From a virus: 64,000 nucleotides of DNA. Position numbers and translations under genes: made by a program. The DNA lies in the IMG/VR virus record IMGVR_UViG_3300045988_114508, positions 67,938-131,937 of that record; one strand, given 5' to 3'. The notes under the pieces are model-generated. The model saw only the letters and a program-made list of their open reading frames with translations. It was not told the origin of the DNA and made no database searches. Numbering within the stretch: position 1 is the first letter of the stretch; every line of letters starts with the position of its first letter. Shown in pieces: positions 5,506 through 60,205 of the stretch.

Positions 5506-7764
5506 ATGGGTGTCAAATGTCAGATAGAAAAAAAGGAAAATGAAATAAAACGGGTTAAGGCTCCTAACGGGGAGCCTTCCGTTCTTTACGAAAGTGCTTT
5601 AAAAGTATTAGGAAACAGCGAGCGGGCTCTTCAGGTATGGGCTAAGGCTTACACTCCTGGTTTTTTGTCGTATTACGGTCATTGGAATAACCCGGCTCCA
5701 GGGGAGATGTTTAACACCGATCCCAATGGCGAACCTCTTTTAGAAGATGTGCTGTCGTATATGAAGCGTCAGACTTATTTTGCTGATCCTTTAACGGCTC
5801 AGGATGTTAAGGATGTAAGGGATTTCCTTTTGTCTACTCATTATTTTTTCAATGCGTCTTCATTGTCTAATGCTATCCTCTTCGATTTTTATGTAGATGG
5901 CAGTTTGATACTGAATGAGCAGAAATTAAGGAGATCCGGTTTGTATGATGAAACAGAAATAAGTCGTATTTTATCCGATCCTTCTGTTTTAAATGAGGTT
6001 TCGATTTCCATGAGAAAGTTAATAGATTGTTCTATTAACGAACATGATAGGGAAAAGGATAATTATTTTATGTCTATTGACTATCAGTATGGTCCTATTG
6101 TTTACAAGGAGGGAGTGTTTAACCAATTTGGTAAAAAAGTACCATATAATCCTTCTGAGCTTTATTATGCTATGCGTAAAACAGTAGCCGGCATAAAAAA
6201 CTTTTCTGAATTTTCATCTGCTTTTGAATCGTTGAGAAACTCATACCCTGAACTGGTTGATAAATTCGTTTATGATAAAGAATTTGCCGAATCTATGTTT
6301 GATGAGTTCTCATCTACGAATAAGATTCCGGTAATAAACATAGAAGGGGATGATGTGGTAGAAGGCAAGAGAAGATCCTTGTCTAAGCTACAAGATCTGT
6401 CTTATTACAATCCTGGCAAAATAGAGTTCCTAAGAGCTCGTATATCAGCTTATTTACATAGGGCTAATGCCGACACCGAATCCGATTTAAGAAGCATGAT
6501 ATGGGATATAGAAGAGGCTTGTACGTGGTTTGGCATAGATATAATAGGGACATCGGAAACTTATGATGGCACAGAAGAATCTTTGAATAAGATAGATAAT
6601 TTGATGCTGGATCTTGATATTTATGTGGCCAGGCATAATGATGTAAATTATGCTCCAACGCTGGCATCTTCTATAGATGATGTTCTTGGTGATAGCACAG
6701 ATTATTATTTTGGATTATTACCGGAGTATATGGATAATTTGAATATCGTTTATTCTGAATCCGATATAGACCCAGTAGAGGCATTTGAGAAACATTCATT
6801 GCTTAAGGTAGGAGATAATCTATATCAAAGGATCAGCAAAGATGATCTTAACGAGATGTATCAAATATCAACAGTATTAGCCAAGCACAACCTAACTCAT
6901 TTTTCTACTAAAATATATCCTGAATCTTGTTTTAAGAACGGCGTTTTGGATAAAGAGAAAGTACGGAACGTAGATAATAATACGCTCATGGATTCCATTA
7001 AAAAATACGTCAGATCGTTCATGGATTCTCAGAACACGGAGGACATGATAATGACCAGGATGGCGTTTGGTCACCCGGCGGTACTTGACGTTCCTTACGT
7101 GGATGTGGATCGGGAGTATAGTCGATACATGAACAAAAAACAAGATAGCGAAAACCCATTATCCTTATTCGATTTATACCAATCTTACCTTGACAACAAA
7201 CTCCATAAAACAAAATTATATGATAATGCCTATAAGTATCTTGACTTCAAACCTGGTCCATCTTTGGGTCTTATTTCTGATGATCCTGATATTTTGAAAT
7301 CAATAGAATTATCTTTATCTGGAAAAGATAGGCTGATGTTGTTTGATTATAGCATGACCAGCACCGACCCTTTTTTATCAGAATTGTTTTATTTGGAGAA
7401 GTATGACTCTTCGTATGCCGGGAATGATTTTGAACATTATTTTTACACCAGGCACCCGTATCTGTTAAAAGAAAAATCGGGTCCTAATATCGTAGAGCAA
7501 GATGGTGTTATAACAGCCGAAGGTATTTATGATAATTTTATAAGAGTAGGTAATAAGATATGGTCTAAAGTAAGCGAGAGTAGTTCCGGCTCTATCTACC
7601 AAAATCTGACAGGAACCGAATCAGAGGTGAAATACGATTCTACTCAGAAGGCTAAGACGGTAGAAACCGATTACGCTCCATACCAAAACAGATCTGGCCT
7701 GACGCAAGATATGATCGTAAGCAAGTCTGAATTGGATGATCTTAACAAATTAGAATGCAAATAA
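5506..7764 (+). CDS. large protein (~753 aa), function unknown; candidate virion/ejected protein
   Basis: 2.2-kb ORF; track start 5485 is TTG; first ATG at 5506 sits inside a 27-bp repeat also present at 4826-4852; no motif recognised. Confidence 0.6.
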   Translation: MGVKCQIEKKENEIKRVKAPNGEPSVLYESALKVLGNSERALQVWAKAYTPGFLSYYGHWNNPAPGEMFNTDPNGEPLLEDVLSYMKRQTYFADPLTAQDVKDVRDFLLSTHYFFNASSLSNAILFDFYVDGSLILNEQKLRRSGLYDETEISRILSDPSVLNEVSISMRKLIDCSINEHDREKDNYFMSIDYQYGPIVYKEGVFNQFGKKVPYNPSELYYAMRKTVAGIKNFSEFSSAFESLRNSYPELVDKFVYDKEFAESMFDEFSSTNKIPVINIEGDDVVEGKRRSLSKLQDLSYYNPGKIEFLRARISAYLHRANADTESDLRSMIWDIEEACTWFGIDIIGTSETYDGTEESLNKIDNLMLDLDIYVARHNDVNYAPTLASSIDDVLGDSTDYYFGLLPEYMDNLNIVYSESDIDPVEAFEKHSLLKVGDNLYQRISKDDLNEMYQISTVLAKHNLTHFSTKIYPESCFKNGVLDKEKVRNVDNNTLMDSIKKYVRSFMDSQNTEDMIMTRMAFGHPAVLDVPYVDVDREYSRYMNKKQDSENPLSLFDLYQSYLDNKLHKTKLYDNAYKYLDFKPGPSLGLISDDPDILKSIELSLSGKDRLMLFDYSMTSTDPFLSELFYLEKYDSSYAGNDFEHYFYTRHPYLLKEKSGPNIVEQDGVITAEGIYDNFIRVGNKIWSKVSESSSGSIYQNLTGTESEVKYDSTQKAKTVETDYAPYQNRSGLTQDMIVSKSELDDLNKLECK

Positions 7765-13943: not shown

Positions 13944-16900
13944 ATGGCGTCAACGTGTATTATTAAAAGAGATAATAAAAAGAAAGTTGTTTCTGTCTCT
14001 ACCAGATCAGGGGACAGGTCTATGTTGTTTGATAAAATAGCATCTGTTCCCCTTATGGAGAATAGGGAACGGGCTACTACTGTTTTTAAAACCGTATTTT
14101 CTAATAAGTTCTTAAAGGCTTTTGGCGACTGGAGAAAGAGAGTGCCTATCAACAAACAGGCCTACAATAAGGTGAAATCCAACATCGATCTTATTCCGGA
14201 AGCCTATAGAGAAAGGGTACTGGATAAGGCTTCTAAGATGAGTAATCCTGTTCTTGTGTCAAAATCAGATGCACCTTATGAAATCCAAGAATCGGGCTTT
14301 GGATTTTACAGCCAAGATCTGGGTGATAATATTATGTTGGTGGATGCTATGGTCCCGTCAAGTATTTCCGTACCGGAAGGACCGGGAATAGACGCCGGGC
14401 AGTATCTACAAGATGCTATATCTTCGGACTTCACTCCCGTATCTATGGTACAGGATAAGGGTGTTAATTATATGGTTATAAAGGACGGTCTTAAGATATT
14501 TAGCCCAGAAGAGTTACCAGAAACAGATTCTAATCCTGTGGGTGTAACGTATCAGACCGGAGAGCCTCGTTTGTTTTTCATGAACGATCGTAGTCAATTA
14601 TTTGAAGATTACGGAGAAGCTCTTCGCTCTGGCGGTAATGATATTAGAATAGGATTCTTATCAGGCACCGTTCAAGAATCCACCGTGGATGGCGTGGCAG
14701 ACATTACTTACAAGGCTGGGAAGTATGTTCTTAATAATCCCAAGTCTTTTATACCGGTCATGACCGCTTCTGCTTCTACTTCTTTATCAACAAAAGGTGG
14801 TATAATTAACTACCTTATAAAGAAAGGTCTTTTGTCAGGATCTAAGATATTCGATCCTGAAACAAGAAGCTATTATCTTACAGGAGAAGGTCATACAGGA
14901 CAAATTAGACTTTTCAATTCAGCCTTATCATACACTGAGCTCCGTAATCATTTTGGTTCCGATGTTTCCATGAACGACCAGGGTATGATAACCATAAGCT
15001 CGTTGGATAACAGTAAGGTAACTATGAGACTTGCCACCGGAGGAACGGAAAGGGTTAGTAGGGAACAGATAAAGAACGATCTTAAGTCAGGAAGATACAA
15101 TGAATTGGACGCCAAGTACGATCATTTTGATGCGCTTGTAGTTTCATTCATATTAGAAGACAACGATCTTTATGCTGATACTAAAGCTAAGATCGTATCA
15201 GATTATAGCAGGCAGGAACGTGACCAACGAAATTCTATTGTCGAGATACTGAAAACTCTTGGCGTTAGCGTCATAGGTATGACCGATTATATAGAGAAGT
15301 ACCAAACCAAATACGGGCACGAGCCTTCTGCTAAGGCATTGGCGGATATTGCCAATAACGTAATAGCAGTTGGTGAAGATGCTACTTTATCTGATTTAGT
15401 AGAAGAAACAGCCCACTTCCTTGTAGAGGCATACAGAGATCAGAATGCTGTTGAGGCTGTTCTGCAAGATGTAGAAGGTACGGAAGAGTGGAACCAGTAT
15501 GCAGGTCAGTATTATAATACATACGGTAAAGTATATGAAGGAGCTGAGCTTGATAATGCCGTTAGGAGAGAAATTCTTGGAAAGATCCTTGCCAGGGAGA
15601 TGCAGACCGGCACAGCACAGGCTCCGGTAGAGCCCACCTCCTTCCTGGGGCGCGTCCGGCAGCTTTTCTATGGAATCGTAAGCTGGCTTAAATCAGCTTT
15701 ATCAACCCAAAGACAGGATTTGAATAACGTTATTAAAAACATTCGTGATCTTGCCATTACTGACATAGATAAAGGATTTGACACCTCTCTGTTAAAGGAT
15801 AATGACTTTACATTATACTCTCTTTCTTCTATGAACAAGAACAAGTTTCTTGAGTCCAAGATCAGATCACTAAGAAAAACATTAAGAGACTTACGTCAGA
15901 TAAGCTCTGATAGGGCTGTAACTACGTCTATGACCCTTGCTCAGCTTAAGATCATAGAAGATAAGATAAATAAGGTAGAGACCGAAATAGACAAGAATGA
16001 GATGGCGGCTGCCATGAACAGCATGATCTCCACAGCCGAAGCTCAGGTCAGATACTTAAGTAATGTGGTGAACACCATCCTTCATGGTGATACCAAAGAC
16101 GGCAAGCTTCACTTCAATACCAATGATCGAAAGAACGTAGATATTATCAACAATCAGGTTCTTCCGATCATGAACGATCTTCGAGGATATATCCGTAACA
16201 GAAGTACCGAATTTGATGAACGTGAAAAGCAGGATTATACAAATAGGATCAATACCGTCATTGCCGACATCAATGGTGTTCAGTCTGATATTAAATCAGT
16301 ACAAGACCTTGATGAAAGTACGTTGCTTGATAAGTTAATGAACGAACTTCATGTGCCGGCAGATAAGGTAAAGAGAGTAAAAGAATTTTTCGACAAGGTT
16401 CAACACGATGTTTCTTGGATAAGTAGGTGGTTTGGTATATTAGAGCATTCTTCCAGTCCGTTCAATAACGCTCTTGGAGCTATGATTGCCAAAGACAATT
16501 ACAATGCGATGGTGAATGCCCAGCCCGCCATATCCGACTTCCTGGCATATGCTAAAAAGCATGGTTTTAACAAATCTGAATTTGAAAAACTGCTTCAGAA
16601 AGTAGACGGCAAAACTTCTAATTACCTTCGTAGTGCTCTTGATATGGCTAAATACGATCGTAATAAGAAGCTGGCGCAGATGCGAGCGTTTGCGACTGCC
16701 ATGAACATAGAGATATCAGAAGAAGAAATCAATGATGTGGTTGACAATAACCGTAATTACGTATTTAAAAGAGAAGTAGTTGACAAGGATGGAAATACGG
16801 TTACTGAAAACGCTAAATTCAAACCATCGTCTGATAGAGTTAATACCGATATTTTTACCATCGAGCAGGAAAAGATCTATACGGAACAGATGGAAAAGTG

Positions 16901-37498: not shown

Positions 37499-38065
37499 CT
37501 ATTTCAACCTGCCGTAGCTCATATCAGGATCACACCAGACATACCCGTCTTTCTCATCATGAAGATACTCAGGACATCCTCTACATGCGCTACTTCCTGA
37601 CACTATTTGATTGTTCTTATTAGGGCACTTATCTCCAGGCTTATGCCATTCTATTCTCGAACCTGATCGCTCTTTGTTTACATGACAGAATTGAAATACT
37701 TTTCCCATCGTCTTCTCGCCAAACATACCTATATGTGTGTATTCTTCCGGTATAGAGAGAAATTCAGATAAATCTTTATACATCCTTTCCCGTTCCTCCG
37801 GCGTAGACCATAGTCTGTCAAGTTCGGCATGGACTCTTATCTTAAGAGATCTCAGTGATGGCCCCGCAAGCCGGCCTTTAGCTTTTCCCTTATTCGGCCC
37901 TGATTCATGAACACCGACATAAGCGTTGCATGGTTTACACATCATAACCATCCCTAAGCCTTTTCTGCTATATATTTTATCGGCATTTACCAGCTCAGTC
38001 TCTCTTCCGCAATAAGGACAAATTTCGCCTCTTAAAACCCGTTGTTGGCGCTCATTAAGTTCCAT
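37499..38065 (-). CDS. Zn-ribbon protein (188 aa)
   Basis: CPYCG...CKPCN and CRGCPEY...C pairs. Confidence 0.5.
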   Translation of the reverse strand: MELNERQQRVLRGEICPYCGRETELVNADKIYSRKGLGMVMMCKPCNAYVGVHESGPNKGKAKGRLAGPSLRSLKIRVHAELDRLWSTPEERERMYKDLSEFLSIPEEYTHIGMFGEKTMGKVFQFCHVNKERSGSRIEWHKPGDKCPNKNNQIVSGSSACRGCPEYLHDEKDGYVWCDPDMSYGRLK

Positions 38066-38307
38066 ACCCTATTCTTTTGTTTTTCTTTAAACTTTTCATA
38101 CAAACTGCTTTCAGTTTCCATTTCCGAAACCTCTACCTCTACGTCCTCTCTTTTGAAAATTACTTTCTTGGCTGTCGGATACGCGCATTTAGAGATACGA
38201 ATAGCATTGCGAATAGCGTAAACAAAATACGTTTCTGGTGACGATTCGATCACCACTACCTCATTTAAAGTGTTTTTGTAATTTTCCATATTATCTACTT
38301 GCTTCAA
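38032..38307 (-). CDS. hypothetical protein (91 aa)
   Basis: ORF. Confidence 0.4.
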   Translation of the reverse strand: MKQVDNMENYKNTLNEVVVIESSPETYFVYAIRNAIRISKCAYPTAKKVIFKREDVEVEVSEMETESSLYEKFKEKQKNRVWNLMSANNGF

Positions 38308-38644
38308 TTATATAACCCGGATGATCTTCGCACGCCTCTTTATATTCGATAAGAAACTTAAGAAATGAATCATAAGACCCCCATCCATTTTCTGGCTCGT
38401 ATTTCAAAAGACTTTTTCTCTTGGAGATCATAATACATATACCTTTTGTAAGTACATTCTTCATCTCATTGGTATATATTTCTCTATACAATTCTTCTGG
38501 TCTCCAAACATAATCGTATAATGTTTCTTTGTTTTTCGATACGAATATTTTTTGTGCCATCTTGTTCATGTTGTGGGTGATGTTTGCAACCCATCTATAA
38601 TCCTCTTCTTTCTTCTTACTTTTAATATAAACGTCCAGGCTCAT
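38291..38644 (-). CDS. hypothetical protein (117 aa)
   Basis: ORF. Confidence 0.45.
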   Translation of the reverse strand: MSLDVYIKSKKKEEDYRWVANITHNMNKMAQKIFVSKNKETLYDYVWRPEELYREIYTNEMKNVLTKGICIMISKRKSLLKYEPENGWGSYDSFLKFLIEYKEACEDHPGYIIEASR

Positions 38645-39635
38645 ACTGTTTTTCTTTTACCTTATTACTAATTATCAAATCTGCCACATCATCTCCGTCT
38701 CCTACATTTTCAACATTTTGAAGATAGTCCGATACTTTTATCCTTGACTTCATCATCATCCCATCTATCTTTTTACTCCATGTGTCAAATGCTTGTCCTT
38801 TGTCCGGAAAAGCTACAGTCTTTCTATCTTTTAAAACATCTATAACTTCCGGTCTTAGATTCTGCAACCCACCGGTAGCCACAAATAACTCATCTGGTTT
38901 ATTCACAGCGCATATAATAGCCGTCTTTTCTGATTCCACCAAATTAACTACCTTATCTGGATACTGGCTTAGAAGATGTTCTCCAAACAGGCATTGTCTA
39001 AACAAGAAGTCTCTTGCATGTAACGAGTGATAAAACATAACATGAGGCCGCTCATTGTCACCGTCTTTTTCCTTCACTCTTTTTACATCAATCTCATTCC
39101 CCTGGCTGTCGGTCTTTATATAAAAGTCCATGATCTTTCCGGTTCTACATACAAAATCTTTGTCTATCTGCCAGAATACACAACATCCTTTCCATCCCCA
39201 TAAGTCCATTGTTCCGACATGATACCTTCTGAACACATCAGATACCCTTTCTTTTCCCCATAGAGACGATAAAAATCTAAATACAGTATTTCTATCATCT
39301 GGAACTACAGTCCTCTCAAACTCGCTAAAAGGTATGTAATTTACAACGTCAGGATTTACAGGAGGACGATAAGCTCTTATACACTTATTTCCCGAAATCC
39401 AAAGATCTTTGTCACCTACATCCTTGCCGGTAGGCCGTTTATCATAACCGCAAGTCCGTTCATGATCGCATCTCCCGAACTCATTTCCAACTACCTGACC
39501 TGTTGCCACATCAATATAAGGAGTGAGGCATCGGCTTTTCCCGCAAGCCGGGCAGGTTAGCTTCAGTCGGCTCCTGCCAGGTCTGCGGTCAAGTTGAAAC
39601 CGAGGTACGTTTTCGTATTTTCTAAAATCAAGCAT
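38622..39635 (-). CDS. DNA primase, DnaG-type Toprim with N-terminal Zn-finger
   Basis: Zn-binding CPACGKSRC...GRCDHERTCGY; Toprim VVNLVESEKTAIICAV (degenerate EGxxD), VATGGLQN, D-x-D segment VAFPDKGQAF. Confidence 0.65.
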   Translation of the reverse strand: MLDFRKYENVPRFQLDRRPGRSRLKLTCPACGKSRCLTPYIDVATGQVVGNEFGRCDHERTCGYDKRPTGKDVGDKDLWISGNKCIRAYRPPVNPDVVNYIPFSEFERTVVPDDRNTVFRFLSSLWGKERVSDVFRRYHVGTMDLWGWKGCCVFWQIDKDFVCRTGKIMDFYIKTDSQGNEIDVKRVKEKDGDNERPHVMFYHSLHARDFLFRQCLFGEHLLSQYPDKVVNLVESEKTAIICAVNKPDELFVATGGLQNLRPEVIDVLKDRKTVAFPDKGQAFDTWSKKIDGMMMKSRIKVSDYLQNVENVGDGDDVADLIISNKVKEKQYEPGRLY

Positions 39636-39978
39636 TTTTAACTCCTCTCATTGCCTCTATGATTCTATCTGCTATAGTTATAGACCATGACACCACATCT
39701 GGTACATATACTCCGCAATCTATTTCACCTTTTCTATTTTGTGCTTTAACAAACTCAATAGAATAAGCTTTAACAAGATCGAATCTACGTTGTTCCCAGT
39801 CTACATCTTTGTTTTCGTCATTTACAGGAAGGGTATCGAGATAAAAATTTAAACTCTCACTTATTACATTCCCATTATCACCATAGAACTGTATTCTGTC
39901 ATGGTCGCTTCTTGTAGTTGAGCTACTAAAGGTGATTACGTCTATTATCTCTCCTGTTCTTCTAATTTTTCTCTTCAT
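39628..39978 (-). CDS. hypothetical protein (116 aa)
   Basis: ORF. Confidence 0.45.
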   Translation of the reverse strand: MKRKIRRTGEIIDVITFSSSTTRSDHDRIQFYGDNGNVISESLNFYLDTLPVNDENKDVDWEQRRFDLVKAYSIEFVKAQNRKGEIDCGVYVPDVVSWSITIADRIIEAMRGVKNA

Positions 39979-46590: not shown

Positions 46591-47388
46591 TTAAATAGAT
46601 GCAAATATGCGAATTTTGTTTAGATATCCTTCTGTCATCTCTATAAAATTCACACAATCTAATTTGCTTAACTTGTAAATCAACACTGGATTGTGTACTA
46701 TGGCTATAATTTGTGTTTGTGGTTTATGGAATGACAATACATTATAAATTTGCATTATGTTGTCAATGTCAAGATTTCTGTCTGGCTCATCCATGAGAAC
46801 CGTGTATTCAAAACTGCTTTTTGTTAATGTTATGCGGTTTCTTTTATAATACTTCAACAGGTTATCAATTCTTTTAATCCAAAACGCATTTGATTTTTTC
46901 TTGTATTCTACAAGATCTTGTATTGGAAACGTATAATCCTTTTGACCGAACATTAAATTGAAAAGTGATTCCAATGATAACACCACTTTCTCTCCATAAG
47001 ATCTTCTAATATTATTCACATACAAATCTAAATTGCTGATATTTTTCAATACGCTATCTCGATTCATCTCCGTAGATGGCAATAAACGGAATACTTTCCC
47101 TGCATAATCGGATAATATGTCAATCCCATCAAAAACCTTGTCATCATCATCAAATATAGATGGAAAATCCAGTGCCTCGATCGGCATTTCAGAGCACATA
47201 GACTTCTCGCATAACGCATACATTGATATGATATTAAGTAAGGTCGATTTTCCACTACCGTTTTCACCTATAATCACATTCACTCCTGGCTTGAAAATAA
47301 ATTCTCTGCCATTTTCAAACGCTTCTATGTCAGAAGCATATTCAAATGGAGTTTTTGTATTGTCTTTTATTTTTACCGATGTTATCAT
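46591..47388 (-). CDS. small ABC-type (AAA_21/SMC-like) ATPase
   Basis: Walker A IIGENGSGKSTLLNI; signature-like RSYGEKVVLSL (LSGGEK-type); Walker B VLMDEPDRNLD; H-loop IAIVHN. Confidence 0.65.
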   Translation of the reverse strand: MITSVKIKDNTKTPFEYASDIEAFENGREFIFKPGVNVIIGENGSGKSTLLNIISMYALCEKSMCSEMPIEALDFPSIFDDDDKVFDGIDILSDYAGKVFRLLPSTEMNRDSVLKNISNLDLYVNNIRRSYGEKVVLSLESLFNLMFGQKDYTFPIQDLVEYKKKSNAFWIKRIDNLLKYYKRNRITLTKSSFEYTVLMDEPDRNLDIDNIMQIYNVLSFHKPQTQIIAIVHNPVLIYKLSKLDCVNFIEMTEGYLNKIRIFASI

Positions 47389-47503
47389 ATGTAATCCTTT
47401 TTAAAAATCAATTACCGTCCGAACCATGTCTCCGATGTGCTTGTTGCCGGTGCCCGTGAGGCCACTGGAGAAGACCACGTACCACGCGACGGCCTGGCTG
47501 CTC

Positions 47504-48004
47504 TCAGTGCTGGACCAATACCACGTCGAGGGATTCTAATATGGTGTCTACAAACTCCGTTATTTTATCAACGGATTCTTTTGATAAGGTATATCTTCTC
47601 CAATCCCATCTAAAATGCGCTTTTGGGAGATTTTTAGTAGAATATTTTTCATTTCCGTCCTTGTTAGTCCATTCGTAATTATCCTCTGGATCCGCCACTT
47701 TTATCCCCGATTTAGGTCCGTTACGAAAGCTATATAGCATTCTTATAACCGATTCAAAATCCGAACCTATATCAAATAGCATATGATACACCTTGTTTAT
47801 TAAAGCCCTATCAGCTTGTTCCAAGTCTTCACCAAACAACTCTCTTACACTCCAATTTTTCATTTCTGAATAACGAATGAAATTAAGTTTCCCTTTTTCT
47901 ATATTAGGATTTTTTCTTGATAATACAAGCTCCAAATCTTTCACAAATGATTCTTTTAGCTTCTGTTGTCCTAACAAGGCGGTGTATTTGCTTACTATAT
48001 CCAT
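47504..48004 (-). CDS. hypothetical protein (166 aa)
   Basis: ORF. Confidence 0.5.
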   Translation of the reverse strand: MDIVSKYTALLGQQKLKESFVKDLELVLSRKNPNIEKGKLNFIRYSEMKNWSVRELFGEDLEQADRALINKVYHMLFDIGSDFESVIRMLYSFRNGPKSGIKVADPEDNYEWTNKDGNEKYSTKNLPKAHFRWDWRRYTLSKESVDKITEFVDTILESLDVVLVQH

Positions 48005-55814: not shown

Positions 55815-55992
55815 AATCTTTCGTTTTATTATCTACAAACTTATCTATATCGTCTCTTATTCTCTTTAGCACTCCGGCTATAATTTCCGGCATCTCTCCT
55901 TCGGTACGGTTCAGAGTTTCTATCACCCCATCAATCCTACCAATTTGACGCCATAAGAAATTGGCGTCTTTCGCATTAAATTTCCCCATCAT
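55801..55992 (-). CDS. hypothetical protein (63 aa)
   Basis: ORF. Confidence 0.35.
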   Translation of the reverse strand: MMGKFNAKDANFLWRQIGRIDGVIETLNRTEGEMPEIIAGVLKRIRDDIDKFVDNKTKDYENI

Positions 55993-56224
55993 GTCTTATT
56001 TTACAGTAAACAACTTGCTTTTTTAAGCACCAGTCTTGCGATTCTGAGAGTGAACACCGTTCGGAGTTGTTAAAAAATATACAATCTTTGCAGAACATAA
56101 GAGGATCTTCGTCGTCACCAACTACTTTGACATCATACTCTATACCATACAATTTTAATCTAAATACATCTCCTGTTTTTTTAGAAGACAAATCCATGTT
56201 CGGACCGAATGTTATTACTTCCAT
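55976..56224 (-). CDS. hypothetical protein (~83 aa from internal ATG; track ORF runs into the tRNA-like element)
   Basis: MEVITFGPNMDL... start avoids overlap with the tRNA-like element. Confidence 0.4.
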   Translation of the reverse strand: MEVITFGPNMDLSSKKTGDVFRLKLYGIEYDVKVVGDDEDPLMFCKDCIFFNNSERCSLSESQDWCLKKQVVYCKIRHDGEI

Positions 56225-56245
56225 ATAATTATGTTTTAATGTTGT

Positions 56246-56312
56246 GTGAGATCGCCGGAATCGAACCAGCCTACCGCACCATGAATCCCATAAAGCAAAT
56301 GCTCCGATCTTC
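56246..56312 (-). other. tRNA-like element: canonical T-arm + acceptor-like 3' part (GCTGG-TTCGATT-CCGGC); no foldable D/anticodon arms
   Basis: minus strand reads ...GGCTGGTTCGATTCCGGCGATCTCAC; 5-bp T-stem, 7-nt TTCGATT loop, 5/7 acceptor pairing (GAAGATC/GATCTCA); ~67 nt, too short for a canonical tRNA. Confidence 0.35.
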
Positions 56313-56446
56313 GCAGATGGGAGCATTCTGTCTAAAGCATAAGAAAATTAATGAAGAAATTTTTCTCACTTACGCCATAGCATCTAAAATAGCTATCAGC
56401 ACTATTTCTATGACAAACATAATAGAAAATATCTTAAATGCCTTTT

Positions 56447-56770
56447 TCATATTATTTCCTCCTTCTTCTTTATGTTTATAGTTCTTCTATACAGTATCTC
56501 TCCGGTCGTAATATCCTGTGCGCTTACACTAATACGAACACAGTCCTTTAACCAACTCGGTCTGTGTTTAAGCAATTCTTTAGCACTCGTTCTTAATATC
56601 ATCTCTTTGGCATCTGATACCGGCATAGACCTGTTGCTTATTAGTCTACTACTTTTCGAACCTGTATAAGATATCCAATTTATCCAAATATAATGTATTG
56701 TTCTTTCCATCTTTTTTCTTTTTACGTTCCACAATAAACTGTCCCGGCTCTGCTCCGAACTACGTTCCAC
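56447..56770 (-). CDS. hypothetical protein (107 aa)
   Basis: ORF. Confidence 0.4.
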   Translation of the reverse strand: MERSSEQSRDSLLWNVKRKKMERTIHYIWINWISYTGSKSSRLISNRSMPVSDAKEMILRTSAKELLKHRPSWLKDCVRISVSAQDITTGEILYRRTINIKKKEEII

Positions 56771-56785
56771 CTACAACCGCAGGCC

Positions 56786-57064
56786 TTAGCCCAAGGCGCC
56801 GCCTACTCCCCCCTCTATGGCAGCCTGTTCGTACCTACAAAGCCAGTCTCCATCTACACAACTAACACTACGCGATAATAAACATTTATTCTTATAACAA
56901 TCATTAAAAATACACCCCTCACAACTGTAATCCTTAACTCCTTCACAGCTAACTACCTTAGCATATACTATACCATCACCGTCTTCTATTCCTTTTACCC
57001 CAAAAATAGAACCTTCTTCCTCCTTACTCAAATCTAAGTCAGGCGCAAAATCATATACGTTCAT
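56786..57064 (-). CDS. Cys-rich small protein (92 aa)
   Basis: CEGVKDYSCEGCIFNDCYKNKCLLSRSVSCVDGDWLC. Confidence 0.4.
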   Translation of the reverse strand: MNVYDFAPDLDLSKEEEGSIFGVKGIEDGDGIVYAKVVSCEGVKDYSCEGCIFNDCYKNKCLLSRSVSCVDGDWLCRYEQAAIEGGVGGALG

Positions 57065-57117
57065 GTTGTTTATATTTTAATTGTTAAACATTTCACTTAC
57101 TACCAGCCTATGGAATG

Positions 57118-57267
57118 ATGTTTTAAAACGCTATCATACTTTATTTTGTTGGAAAACCTACAGAATACTGTTTTAAAACGCTGATAGTCTTAATTTTGTT
57201 GGAAAACCTACAGAATACTGTTTTAAAACGCTGATAGTCTTAATTTTGTTGGAAAACCTACAGAATT
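57118..57267. repeat. 3 tandem direct repeats of a 50-bp unit (TGTTTTAAAACGCTGATAGTCTTAATTTTGTTGGAAAACCTACAGAATAC)
   Basis: copies start at 57118 (diverged), 57168 and 57218, period 50; immediately 5' of the minus-strand gene starting at 57064. Confidence 0.85.
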
Positions 57268-58000
57268 TTGTTGGTAGGGAGTGCCCTCCCTCTCCCCCTC
57301 TCCAACCCCGGCTAATCCTCTGTCTTTCCGCATAGAACCTGCGCTCTCGGCCTCACTACAGGCATACGGAGAGCGCTACTGAGCTATACTATGGCATGAA
57401 GTATGGGGTGTTTGGAGATAATATCATTCCATAGAGAGAATAGAAGCCTTCAGCCAACGCCCTACCGTCTGCTCCTCCTATCAAAATAGATATTTAAACC
57501 TATAATCAAAGCCAATAAAGAAAAGCAAAAGACCATTACAATATTATACTGATCCGGTCCGTACTCCAACATAGAGCGAATACCAACTGACAGAAAATAC
57601 AAGTCAGCTACTAATAAAAACCACCACATAAAATAAAAAATTTACAATAAGTATATCCGAAAATACGGGAATTACAAAACCTAACTAATTGATAATCAAG
57701 AATACCTCATTTTTAAGAAAAATACAATAAGCCTAATTTTCAATCCATAGAGACGAAAAAGGCGGCATCCGACGCCCTATTTTGGGTCAGAAAACCGCCT
57801 CCAGTTTCGTTTTATACCAATTTTAACGACATGGCATAGACAAAATACCGGCATTATATCCGAATACTCATATTTTAGTTTCATTTTAGACCAATATCGT
57901 TCACGTCCGCCGTTCACTCTCAGAATATCTTACCCATAAATAGAAAGAGTAGGATACGAAAATAGGGCTGCTCCGACATTCGGAACAACCCTACTCCTGT

Positions 58001-58207
58001 TTAAATACTGTTTATGTTTTCCTTCACGTATGTTCGTGATGTATGGACTTTGCGTTTGCATTTGTCCTTTCCCGTATCGGAATGATACGCTTCTTTGAGA
58101 TCACGATACAACATAAATTCACGATACGCTCTTTTCCTCTTTTCTTTAGCTTCTTTCCTGGACAGACCGCGAACATCTACCATGTAAGATTTAAATTTCC
58201 TTTCCAT
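58001..58207 (-). CDS. small basic protein (68 aa)
   Basis: ORF; Lys/Arg-rich. Confidence 0.4.
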   Translation of the reverse strand: MERKFKSYMVDVRGLSRKEAKEKRKRAYREFMLYRDLKEAYHSDTGKDKCKRKVHTSRTYVKENINSI

Positions 58208-58229
58208 TTTCTTTATGCTTTAATTATGA

Positions 58230-58400
58230 TTAACCCCAGCGGTTAAGTGCTTCAATATAGAAACCCTCCGCCTCTTTGTACTCACTTTCGCTTAATGTTT
58301 CCACCGTCTCGATATAGTTACGCAATGTTATTTTTACGCAACTGTTTTTAGATTTATTGAACGCTTCAATTAAAGCGTTGATCATTGCTTTCTTTTCCAT
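58230..58400 (-). CDS. small hypothetical protein (~56 aa; below the track cutoff)
   Basis: ATG at 58400 (minus); MEKKAMINALIEAFNKSKNSCVKITLRNYIETVETLSESEYKEAEGFYIEALNRWG. Confidence 0.3.
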   Translation of the reverse strand: MEKKAMINALIEAFNKSKNSCVKITLRNYIETVETLSESEYKEAEGFYIEALNRWG

Positions 58401-58423
58401 GCTATTATATTATTTATAATTTA

Positions 58424-58487
58424 GAGGTTGCTCCGGAATCGAACCGGACACGCATTCCTATCCTATAGAGATTTTATGCTACAACCA
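58424..58487 (-). other. second tRNA-like element (TCCGG-TTCGATT-CCGGA T-arm + acceptor-like pairing)
   Basis: minus strand reads TGGTTGT...GTGTCCGGTTCGATTCCGGAGCAACCT; shares the 13-nt core CCGGAATCGAACC with the element at 56246-56312; ~64 nt, no canonical cloverleaf. Confidence 0.35.
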
Positions 58488-58980
58488 ACAGCCCGTAATT
58501 AGTACGTAGTTCTTGCGTACAGGCTCGTACTATGTTGTTATTATATTTTTCGTCTGCTACACTATTTCGCCACACATAACGGCATAGTGTCCTTGCGTTT
58601 TGATATATCACGCTCCCATATGGTAGGCTACATGCTTGTACCCTGTAATTTAATCTACAGCCTTGTTCTATTTTTCGTGTAAGCAAGTAAGACACGTTTC
58701 GATCTGGAGATAAACCTCGTACAACGGCATGTTTTCCAAACTGTAATCACATACCTAACATAAATCACGCCTATTCGGGTGATTCATGCAGTAATACCAG
58801 CCCTTTAATTGCCAACGGCAAGAGCAACGGTATATCTATCTCCAATATGTAAAATAACTCTCTGCTTGTCAGCTTCAGTCTAAAGCATACGCGGGGCGTG
58901 CACCCACTGACAATGGCGTACAGGCGCGTTAAGGTACGCGCCGAACCTTTGGAGAGCTTAACGGCGCTCTCCGTGCCTTG

Positions 58981-59520
58981 TTACTGTTGTGTACTCTCGT
59001 GTGCGAGGTATTCACTTACACACTTTGCCACAGTGCGAATAGAATAAGATTTGATCTTAATAGCCACATAAGTAGCTTTGTACTCGTCGGTTTCTTTTAT
59101 TAACCATTTAGTGCTTTTTTGGGTCTCCAATGATTCAGCAGTAGCAAAGCCAAATGATTTATATTCGCTACCGTAAACAACATTCTCAGTGCACCAATCA
59201 GCCGTTTTAGCCTCGACTCCTTTCTCCTTGTCTACCTTGTTATCCTTATATACTTTAGAGTATAGAGAAAATTTAACAAAGGTATCACCCACTTTAGGCA
59301 ACATTTGGCTACACACGGCAACCAGCCGTTTTTTGTCCTTTGCGAGTGCTGCAACCTTTACAGCATATTCGGCTGGTATTTCCAACGTCTTACAAATTGC
59401 TTTCAGGTCAGCACCATTTGCAAATAAAGCATTATACAACTTTACAGCACCCACCAGGTTAGAGGCCATCTCTTTAATAACAGCGTTCTGTAGCTTGTTA
59501 ACATTTTTCTTTGTAATCAT
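58981..59520 (-). CDS. hypothetical protein (179 aa)
   Basis: ORF flanked on both sides by long non-coding regions. Confidence 0.5.
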   Translation of the reverse strand: MITKKNVNKLQNAVIKEMASNLVGAVKLYNALFANGADLKAICKTLEIPAEYAVKVAALAKDKKRLVAVCSQMLPKVGDTFVKFSLYSKVYKDNKVDKEKGVEAKTADWCTENVVYGSEYKSFGFATAESLETQKSTKWLIKETDEYKATYVAIKIKSYSIRTVAKCVSEYLAHESTQQ

Positions 59521-60006
59521 ATCAATATGTATTTATTTGTTAAACAATATCACCTCAATATATCACCTCTTTACAACGCAAAGAGGCAAAAGGTATTGCC
59601 ATACAATACACCCAACGGGAGTATATATATAGCTTCATTATGTAACACCAATATTCTCGCTTGAATACGGTGCAAATATACAACCTTTTTCGGTATTACA
59701 AATATATATACTATCTTTTTTTTGTTAACTTGTATTAATTTCGATTCTATTATCTGATTATCAGCAAGTTGCAAAACACACAAGAGCAGTACTATACGCG
59801 TACATTAATATGTAGGATATATGTTTATTTAAGTGGCTTATAATCAATATGTTATAATAATACATTGATTATCAATAATTTAAATAAACTGTTGATAATC
59901 AGCGAGTTTGTAGGTTTGAGATAAAAACGCGTTTCCGGTTTTCCAGCGAAGGGGGTGTGGGGGAGAAAACGCGTTTCGGGGGCGGGAGGTTCGTGATAGG
60001 TACCCC

Positions 60007-60150
60007 CTCTCTCCCATCACATAAACATTTTTAATCTCTCTCCCATCACATAAACATTTTTAATCTCTCTCCCATCACATAAACATTTTTAATCTCTCTC
60101 CCATCACATAAACATTTTTAATCTCTCTCCCGTAACATAAACATTTTCAC
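60007..60150. repeat. tandem direct repeats: ~4.5 copies of a 29-bp unit (CTCTCTCCCATCACATAAACATTTTTAAT), no spacers
   Basis: units begin at 60007, 60036, 60065 and 60094, with a degenerate copy at 60123. Confidence 0.9.
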
Positions 60151-60168
60151 CTTTCTTCCTCATCACAT

Positions 60169-60205
60169 AAAAAAAAGCAGGGAAGCCTATTTAGGACCTC
60201 CCTGC
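60169..60205 (-). terminator. rho-independent terminator for the minus-strand operon ending at 60237
   Basis: minus strand reads GCAGGGAGGTCCTAAATAGGCTTCCCTGC followed by T8. Confidence 0.65.

Follow-up and report, generated by a model that had tools for sequence, protein, structure and literature searches.

Introduction

Transfer RNAs (tRNAs) and tRNA-like folds can mark the points at which longer transcripts are cut. MALAT1, with its tRNA-like mascRNA, MEN-beta and mitochondrial tRNA punctuation are known cases; these systems are eukaryotic or organellar, cleavage has been shown in them, and mascRNA is a full cloverleaf. To our knowledge, most known examples of punctuation by pieces of tRNA come from mitochondria or from a small number of eukaryotic and herpesviral RNAs. 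In T4-type phages, promoter-plus-stem-loop units called PeSLs delimit variable early genes, at positions where shuffling of modules occurs. Here we analyze two short elements, E1 (56246-56279) and E2 (58425-58486), both on the minus strand of a 64,000-nucleotide (nt) stretch of a virus genome (IMG/VR record IMGVR_UViG_3300045988_114508, positions 67,938 to 131,937; hereafter the window, with position 1 as its first letter). Each carries a canonical tRNA T arm without being a tRNA gene. We tentatively propose that E1 and E2 are tRNA-derived handles for ribonuclease (RNase) P and RNase Z that punctuate polycistronic phage transcripts.

Phages and their hosts offer further points of comparison. 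ROOL, which averages 581 nt, and GOLLD are large structured RNAs of phages and prophages that often lie near tRNA islands, and GOLLD is in some cases covalently linked to tRNAs (10.1101/2024.12.08.627333; PMC5737381). YrlA Y RNAs, which do not decode, possess a canonical T arm, are acted on by tRNA enzymes and usually lie within 4 kilobases (kb) of rsr (PMC4201824). Finally, 3' tRNA fragments that gene finders do not call are the usual outcome of integration into tRNA genes (PMC9897764).

By analogy, the closest parallels to our locus are MALAT1/mascRNA and mitochondrial punctuation with respect to mechanism, and ROOL and GOLLD with respect to context. As in the former, a non-decoding tRNA-like fold stands 3' of a long structured noncoding RNA or between coding units, where RNase P and RNase Z could use it to set the ends of the flanking units; compared to mascRNA, E2 has no D arm and E1 amounts to no more than an irregular minihelix, and cleavage is predicted. 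As with ROOL and GOLLD, a large RNA, here of ~460 nt, lies close to a phage tRNA island (~6 kb) and is fused to a tRNA-like module, but it matches neither RF03087 nor RF01998 (591 nt searched, E≤10), the linked element is not a real tRNA, and the RNA belongs to one tight clade. PeSLs resemble our elements as short conserved intergenic hairpins at cassette borders but are not tRNA-like. Our literature search found no paper linking crAss-like phages to tRNA-like elements and nothing relevant under 'csAssE', the name of the closest relative. It is an open question why phages put large ornate RNAs such as ROOL and GOLLD beside tRNAs. At our locus the two are physically joined, the structured RNA carrying a fused tRNA-like handle, which yields a direct, testable hypothesis, 3'-end formation by RNase P. 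If our proposal is true, a double-stranded DNA phage reuses stripped-down pieces of tRNA as transcript punctuation, and most of the added interest lies in the undescribed large RNA.

Results

Two canonical T arms outside tRNA genes

A first-pass annotation of the window reported two minus-strand T arms sharing a 13-nt core, and both are present: GCTGG-TTCGATT-CCGGC at 56270-56254 in E1 and TCCGG-TTCGATT-CCGGA at 58448-58432 in E2. The shared core, GGTTCGATTCCGG, occurs in E1 and E2 only within the 64 kb, where 0.04 occurrences are expected. A perfect, G-C-closed stem of 5 base pairs (bp) around a TTCRANY loop is likewise found at these two sites alone when both strands of the window are scanned, compared to 0.1 in shuffled sequences. 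The elements show all features of a canonical T arm, with a 5-bp stem closed by G53-C61 and a loop composed of T54, T55, C56, R57, A58, N59 and Y60.

The same annotation held that the elements are not standard tRNA genes, and every search agrees. ARAGORN, run for tRNA and transfer-messenger RNA (tmRNA), made no calls in the window, nor did it call these elements or their homologs tRNA in 80 relatives. Rfam gave no match over the window at gathering thresholds and none at E≤10 over 55.5-59.5 kb, and its tRNA model found no match at E≤10 in searches of 91-121 nt covering E2 and a related element described below. When E2 alone (91 nt) was searched against Rfam, the sole related match was a 5.4-bit, 13-nt match of its T loop to cyano_tmRNA.

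Three T-arm families evolve with their structure preserved

The window derives from a crAss-like human-gut phage of ~150 kb, and the region is 89.5% identical to GenBank 'phage csAssE-Sib' (OR575929.1, 151 kb). Aligned blocks are 83-98% identical, and the window spans roughly the equivalent of 87.8-151.3 kb of that record together with its initial ~5 kb. We compared csAssE-Sib and 80 IMG/VR loci retrieved through their NrnA-like protein. The clade is among the more abundant ones in gut data, and its members are closely related: a search with the 179-amino-acid protein encoded upstream of E2 gave many matches in public data, and the matches listed were all at least 85% identical. A conserved 19-mer, used as a probe for distant relatives, found matches confined to the same clade; NrnA homologs at 43-49% identity were not found in IMG/VR or JGI metagenomes; and the GenBank phage collection contained a single close relative and none more distant.

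In these relatives, elements consisting of a T arm without a called tRNA fall into three families: A, to which E1 belongs; B, which is absent from the window; and C, to which E2 belongs. Thirty-three loci have them in the order C-A-B and eight have C-A only; six of these eight run more than 5 kb past A, as does the window. The A-B spacing takes discrete values of 853, 862, 1066, 1194 and 1249 nt. Every locus covering the relevant position retains C (53/53) and A (37/37), while the genes downstream of both vary. Between A and B, 5 of 33 positions differ and the upstream parts are unrelated; B folds into four hairpins arranged like a class II tRNA, with an 'anticodon-like' loop of variable length (7-10 nt).

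The first-pass annotation had allowed that the T-loop match might be due to chance and lack conservation, and this possibility is now contradicted. Across 132 copies of A, B and C, the T loop reads TTCGATT in 126, TTCGAGT in 5 and TCCGATT in 1, and the TTCGAGT change sits at position 59, which also varies in the T loops of real tRNAs. The T stem occurs in 11 versions, whose 660 pair cells comprise 528 Watson-Crick pairs, 131 G.U pairs and 1 mismatch, and which include the double change TCCGG/CCGGA to TCUGG/CCAGA.

A scan of the csAssE-Sib genome revealed one further T-arm-only element, adjoining rsr, which scores 28.5 bits (E 0.002) against the YrlA model, where the gathering score is 69. This candidate YrlA-like Y RNA, at 72601-72705 of csAssE-Sib (14601-14705 of locus L204), lies beyond the window, just upstream of tRNA-Tyr, tRNA-Lys and the Rsr/Ro60 gene. 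Weak as the match is, the element indicates that the clade uses tRNA mimics.

E2 is a D-armless tRNA-like module

Minimum-free-energy and alifold folds, together with the relatives, define E2 as a 62-nt, D-armless tRNA-like module (58425-58486, minus strand). A 6-bp acceptor-like stem pairs GGUUGU (58486-58481) with GCAACC (58431-58426) and is paired to 99% in 18 distinct relatives. One unpaired A separates its 5' strand from the bipartite hairpin in the center (58479-58452), which has a 5-nt loop and the stems GCAU/AUGC and AUYY/RRAU, and a 3-nt connector leads from there to the T arm (58448-58432), which is flush with the 3' strand of the acceptor; a U (58425) occupies the discriminator position. 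In 18 distinct relatives, 99.1% of cells are paired, with one double change in the T stem and one in the inner hairpin, and a G-to-A variant in the acceptor stem retains pairing by converting U.G to U-A. The acceptor-like pairing that the first-pass annotation assigned to both elements is therefore borne out for E2, whereas for E1 the proposed strand (AGATCG, 56310-56305) lies inside a stronger hairpin.

E2 cannot decode. Its T arm and acceptor stem stack as 5 + 6 bp with no spacer, which is the ~11-12 bp expected of a processing handle, and minihelices are known substrates of RNase P, RNase Z and CCA-adding enzymes. The predicted cut site lies in the context U(-1)/G(+1), which is the preference of bacterial RNase P. 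E2 also resembles the phage's tRNA-Cys in its acceptor stem and 3' trailer (GGUUGU...GCAACC-UCUAAAUUAU versus GGCUUGU...ACAAGCC-UCUAAAAAAAG). A global alignment of the two scores ~3.6 standard deviations above shuffles, mostly through the T arm, so that descent of E2 from tRNA-Cys is suggestive only. All six tRNA genes of csAssE-Sib lack an encoded CCA. The distance from the module end to the next ATG is 24 nt for E2, 21 nt for E1 and 16 nt for the phage tRNA-Cys, and both elements lie on the same strand as their neighboring genes.

A large structured RNA ends in E2

Directly upstream of E2, the alignment of relatives delimits an open reading frame (ORF)-free, structured RNA body of ~460 nt (58487-58949, minus strand), which with the E2 module makes ~525 nt (58425-58949). 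Conservation sets in sharply at AAGGUU (58949) and ends at AACCUCU. The whole 580-nt interval, from the stop of the 179-amino-acid gene (58981) to the ATG of a 56-amino-acid gene (58400), is 83-100% conserved, and it contains no ORF that is conserved among relatives. A 73-amino-acid ORF at 58474-58695, annotated as a coding sequence in the GenBank relative, loses its frame through a 1-nt indel in other genomes and is probably spurious.

RNAalifold, applied to 50 distinct sequences, returned 153 pairs, 19 of which show compensatory double changes, and several hairpins occur in 3-4 covarying versions among the relatives. The fold is strand-specific and rich in G.U pairs, with an alifold energy of -128.7 kcal/mol for the gene-sense strand versus -73.3 kcal/mol for the other. 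Nucleotide diversity in the RNA body is 0.077, compared to 0.331 at third codon positions of the upstream gene. No Rfam family matches the RNA, including in a search confined to 591 nt of this region, in which the ROOL and GOLLD models gave no match at E≤10. Between the body and the stop of the 179-amino-acid gene, some relatives carry an optional hairpin, GGAGAG...CUCUCC (58951-58972, minus strand).

The arrangement of signals fits a single transcript comprising the 179-amino-acid gene, the large RNA, E2 and two small genes, since a promoter match precedes the first and a terminator-like hairpin follows the last. The 179-amino-acid gene (58981-59520, minus strand) is an ORFan with no Pfam or PHROG family and is probably co-transcribed with the structured RNA and E2. 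The promoter candidate, a match to the Bacteroidetes-type consensus (TTTG-N18-TATATTTG, 59673-59702, minus strand), lies ~150 nt upstream of it and is the only full match upstream of E2 between 60.3 and 55.9 kb. Past E2 follow the 56-amino-acid gene (58230-58400), whose ATG lies 24 nt beyond the module, and a 68-amino-acid gene (58001-58207), both on the minus strand; a terminator-like hairpin with a U tract, as read from the sequence, comes next (57964-57992, minus strand). The promoter match falls within a ~650-nt noncoding stretch (59521-60174) that lies downstream of a strong terminator-like hairpin (60207-60175).

E1 is an irregular T-arm minihelix

Folds and relatives show E1 (56246-56279, minus strand) as a minihelix with the layout GUG-c-GG-uag-(T arm)-gau-CU-CAC. 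The T arm (56270-56254) is extended by GG/CU (56275-56274 with 56250-56249) and by GUG/CAC (56279-56277 with 56248-56246). In 20 distinct relatives 99% of the structure is paired, and the changes are one-sided, G.U to A-U only. The hairpin upstream of E1 that includes the previously proposed acceptor strand (56298-56327, minus strand) is predicted to have 8+4 bp with a C.C mismatch and a GCGA loop, and is followed by UUGCUUUAU. Three of its pairs show compensatory double changes in relatives. A terminator scan did not list it, and it may act as a terminator or as a protective 3' cap. Further upstream, a GUGAGA directly 3' of the stop of a 26-amino-acid ORF (56364-56369, minus strand) has a counterpart, GUGAGR, at a similar distance in family B. 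GUGAGA (56369-56364) and UCUCAC (56251-56246) could form a long-range acceptor-like stem that recurs in A and B, with no variation in the alignment.

The elements mark borders of exchanged gene cassettes

The first-pass annotation described the 2.2 kb between the elements as a gene-poor, repeat-rich segment and suggested, as one of several readings, that a duplicated core brackets an inserted element. The repeats are real, consisting of three tandem copies of 50 bp (57119-57266) upstream of a 92-amino-acid gene, each with a TAGGTTTT that matches the Bacteroidetes -7 motif at 7 of 8 positions. Gene poverty, however, extends over ~0.9 kb only (57.1-58.0 kb), and about six small ORFs lie inside the segment. 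Nor is the segment such an insertion, as the C...A arrangement is found with a spacing of 1.7-2.3 kb in every relative that reaches that far.

Relatives vary in the genes that come after A, B and C, and the breakpoints fall either at the 3' tail of an element or where a gene starts. The 56-amino-acid gene after E2, for example, is missing from 9 IMG/VR relatives that keep the same leader, and the junction falls at similar gene starts, ATGGAAA(A/G)GAAA. csAssE-Sib carries three genes and element B between A and an 82-amino-acid gene, and the window lacks this A-B cassette. Here the 82-amino-acid gene (55976-56224, minus strand), which in relatives lies 3' of B and not of A, stands directly downstream of E1, so that an A-type element is joined to post-B sequence. 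The A-rich tail and leader (56225-56245, minus strand) read ACAACAUUAAAA followed by CAUAAUUAU, the switch from family-A to post-B sequence falling between the two, and the overlap at the junction is UAAAA only (5 nt). Because modules and tails are conserved amid variable genes, they coincide with breakpoints of gene gain and loss and mark module borders. The tiny junction homology and the lack of a recombinase argue against a dedicated site-specific system.

Discussion

A tentative role in transcript punctuation

The first-pass annotation offered three interpretations: attachment (att) cores left by integration, RNase P/Z or transcript-boundary signals, and highly degenerate tRNAs. The second fits best, the elements being conserved, structure-preserving, distinct from tRNAs and placed 21-24 nt before ORFs. 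The T loop is kept in three unrelated upstream contexts, substitutions preserve structure, no losses are seen, and the placement resembles that of a CCA-less tRNA, which together point to recognition by tRNA-specific enzymes. We infer co-transcription, recognition by RNase P and RNase Z, and the cuts themselves. Of a tRNA, the modules would retain just the parts that processing enzymes require, an acceptor-like helix with a canonical T arm stacked on it. The 5' side of the module would be cut by host RNase P and the 3' side by RNase Z or an exonuclease. For E2, the products would be the ~460-nt upstream RNA, given a defined 3' end in the way that RNase P generates one at MALAT1 upstream of mascRNA, and a downstream mRNA whose A/U-rich leader measures 24 nt. 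In the case of E1, a stable hairpin would cap the upstream message, while the downstream message would begin 21 nt before its ATG.

Our confidence in punctuation by RNase P and RNase Z falls somewhat short of even, because the cuts are deduced and E1 forms a poor acceptor/T stack. Several observations weigh against it. The homologs are all at least 83-85% identical, which leaves covariation thin, and the acceptor stems are invariant across them. In E1, a 3x3 internal loop splits the T stem from the adjoining helix (5 bp, loop, 2 + 3 bp), making the element a poor mimic of a 12-bp acceptor/T stack; the hairpin before E1 may also terminate transcription, in which case E1 would not be co-transcribed with the upstream genes. 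The diversity of E2 (0.071) is far under that of the third positions of the upstream gene (0.331), yet only slightly under that of the downstream genes (0.086-0.126). Finally, RNAalifold pairs AGGUU (58948-58944) with AACCU (58429-58425), which would close the RNA in tmRNA-like fashion in competition with the local acceptor stem.

A broader version of the proposal strikes us as rather doubtful. In it, E2 would be the tRNA-like 3' handle of a previously undescribed ~525-nt RNA of a new ROOL/GOLLD-like class, carried by crAss-like human-gut phages that form a very abundant clade, and the tRNA-derived minihelix would recruit host tRNA maturation to release or mark the RNA; A and B would punctuate and shuffle early-gene cassettes.

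Alternative explanations

The strongest competing explanation, which we nevertheless regard as unlikely, is that the elements arose by duplication of phage tRNA genes and are now decaying, having no RNA function; they would persist because the clade is young and would matter only as patches of homology for cassette loss or swap. Ancestry of this kind is probable, and to that extent the suggestion of degenerate tRNAs in the first-pass annotation stands; function as tRNA does not, given the absence of a covariance-model score, the 5-nt central loop in C and the variable 7-10 nt loop in B. The likeness of the E2 acceptor and trailer to tRNA-Cys, albeit with a weak score, the class II-like four-hairpin layout of B with its variable loop, the breakpoints at element tails with an A/B hybrid junction in the window, and the identity of at least 83% among all relatives would all be compatible with decay. 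Decay does not readily explain why a single mismatch occurs in 660 T-stem cells spread over 11 stem variants, why 5 of the 6 variant T loops change at position 59, or why C and A are never lost despite gene turnover around them. The homology at the junction, 5 nt of UAAAA, is minimal as well.

Less likely again, the tRNA mimics could serve as ligands and not as cut sites, whether as a handle for CCA addition, TruB or TrmA, as a partner of Ro60 (Rsr), or as a decoy for host defenses that attack tRNA arms. YrlA RNAs are tRNA-modified and are substrates of RNase P and the CCA enzyme (PMC4201824), and csAssE-Sib encodes Rsr/Ro60 with its adjoining YrlA-like RNA as well as a CCA-adding/poly(A) polymerase-type enzyme; E2 has genes for PNK3P and NrnA at a distance of 2-4 kb. 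The canonical T arm is common to YrlA and our elements, but three other features of YrlA, a D arm, a closed acceptor stem-loop and a GNCGAA motif, are absent from A, B and C. An identity as YrlA was rejected, as the model matched neither C nor B in ~100-nt searches, nor any part of 55.5-59.5 kb. Their location also differs: rsr occupies 73.1-74.7 kb of the 151-kb csAssE-Sib record, while A, B and C map to 148.6-149.8 kb and 0.5 kb, so that the elements lie ~75 kb from rsr as opposed to the usual 4 kb or less for Y RNAs (PMC4201824). The csAssE-Sib position of rsr falls outside the window, which itself contains no rsr and no gene for the CCA enzyme.

We consider it improbable that the ends of the ~525-nt RNA pair with each other to form a tmRNA-like terminal domain, with E2 as its 3' half and not as a separate module. 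This closure is the one that RNAalifold chose, and the bounds of conservation run exactly from AAGGUU to AACCUCU. It comprises only 5 invariant bp, however, compared to 6 bp flush with the T stem for the local acceptor. As neither pairing varies, the alignment cannot choose between them on covariation, and the G-to-A variants favor the local stem, keeping its pair while breaking the extended T stem of the RNAalifold consensus. Identity as a tmRNA was rejected, the ARAGORN tmRNA search and the Rfam tmRNA models both being negative.

Site-specific integration, with the elements as attP/attB-type 3' tRNA fragments flanking an insert, is very improbable. The general outcome of integration into tRNA genes and the presence in relatives of a cassette between A and B that the window lacks would suit it, and our elements resemble such fragments as 3' tRNA-like pieces that gene finders do not call. 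The first-pass annotation saw no integrase nearby, and this extends further: window ORFs near the elements lack such a domain, and the annotation of the complete 151-kb csAssE-Sib lists neither an integrase nor a recombinase. No intact partner tRNA was found in the searches described below, the three elements are differently flanked and change in ways that preserve structure, A and B diverge as described above, and no empty C...A site was seen. The metagenome collection, searched for the 23-nt 3' end of E2 followed by A, C or G, contained no matches. A degenerate-pattern scan of genome contigs yielded, among the matches listed, no tRNA with an exact E1 or E2 tail and none from Bacteroidales. 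Hardly credible, lastly, is that these are functional but very unusual tRNAs, since the D-armless outline of E2 is set against the lack of any ARAGORN call in the window or 80 relatives, the lack of Rfam tRNA matches, and the loop lengths in C and B.

Further features of the locus and its relatives

The 20-mer of E1, searched in genome contigs, hit mostly a GWFDSGDL-coding motif of acyl-CoA synthetase-type genes among the matches listed. At 56249-56271, GGCTGGTTCGATTCCGGCGATCTC in E1 is identical to DNA encoding GWFDSGDL in such genes of unrelated bacteria; this identity is due to chance and will confuse BLAST-style checks of the core. A 3.9-kb contig binned into a Veillonella metagenome-assembled genome (L160, NZ_DXLG01000138.1) bears phage elements C and A and is almost certainly a mis-binned phage fragment.

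Within the interval between E1 and E2, the noncoding stretch at 57270-57460 is GC-rich and G-tract-rich, carries many indels among relatives, and holds a D-loop-like UAGCUCAGU and a T-loop-like GGUUCUAUGC. As a candidate for a second structured RNA it was set aside as weak, given an alifold energy of -25 kcal/mol and the many indels. More than 12 IMG/VR contigs of relatives stop ~1.2 kb past element C, within the repeat array, which could reflect an assembly break or a genome terminus. The minus strand also encodes small hydrophobic ORFs of 26 amino acids (56370-56450), conserved upstream of A, and of 55 amino acids (57462-57629), and an 87-amino-acid gene at 56447-56710 is not in csAssE-Sib.

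The crAss-like features of csAssE-Sib include ring and muzzle proteins, BACON-type carbohydrate-binding proteins, an annotated diversity-generating retroelement (variable and template repeats, VR/TR, plus reverse transcriptase) and two TnpB genes, the retroelement and TnpB genes lying beyond the window, at 37751-39816 of locus L203 and at 986-2125 and 6190-7413 of locus L204. Its gene content also comprises Rsr/Ro60, the CCA-adding/poly(A) polymerase-type enzyme, PNK3P and an NrnA-like protein. Where window ~47376-47532 aligns with csAssE-Sib 135402-138010, ~2.6 kb of the relative is missing from the window, and the missing segment includes the CCA-adding/poly(A) polymerase-type gene.

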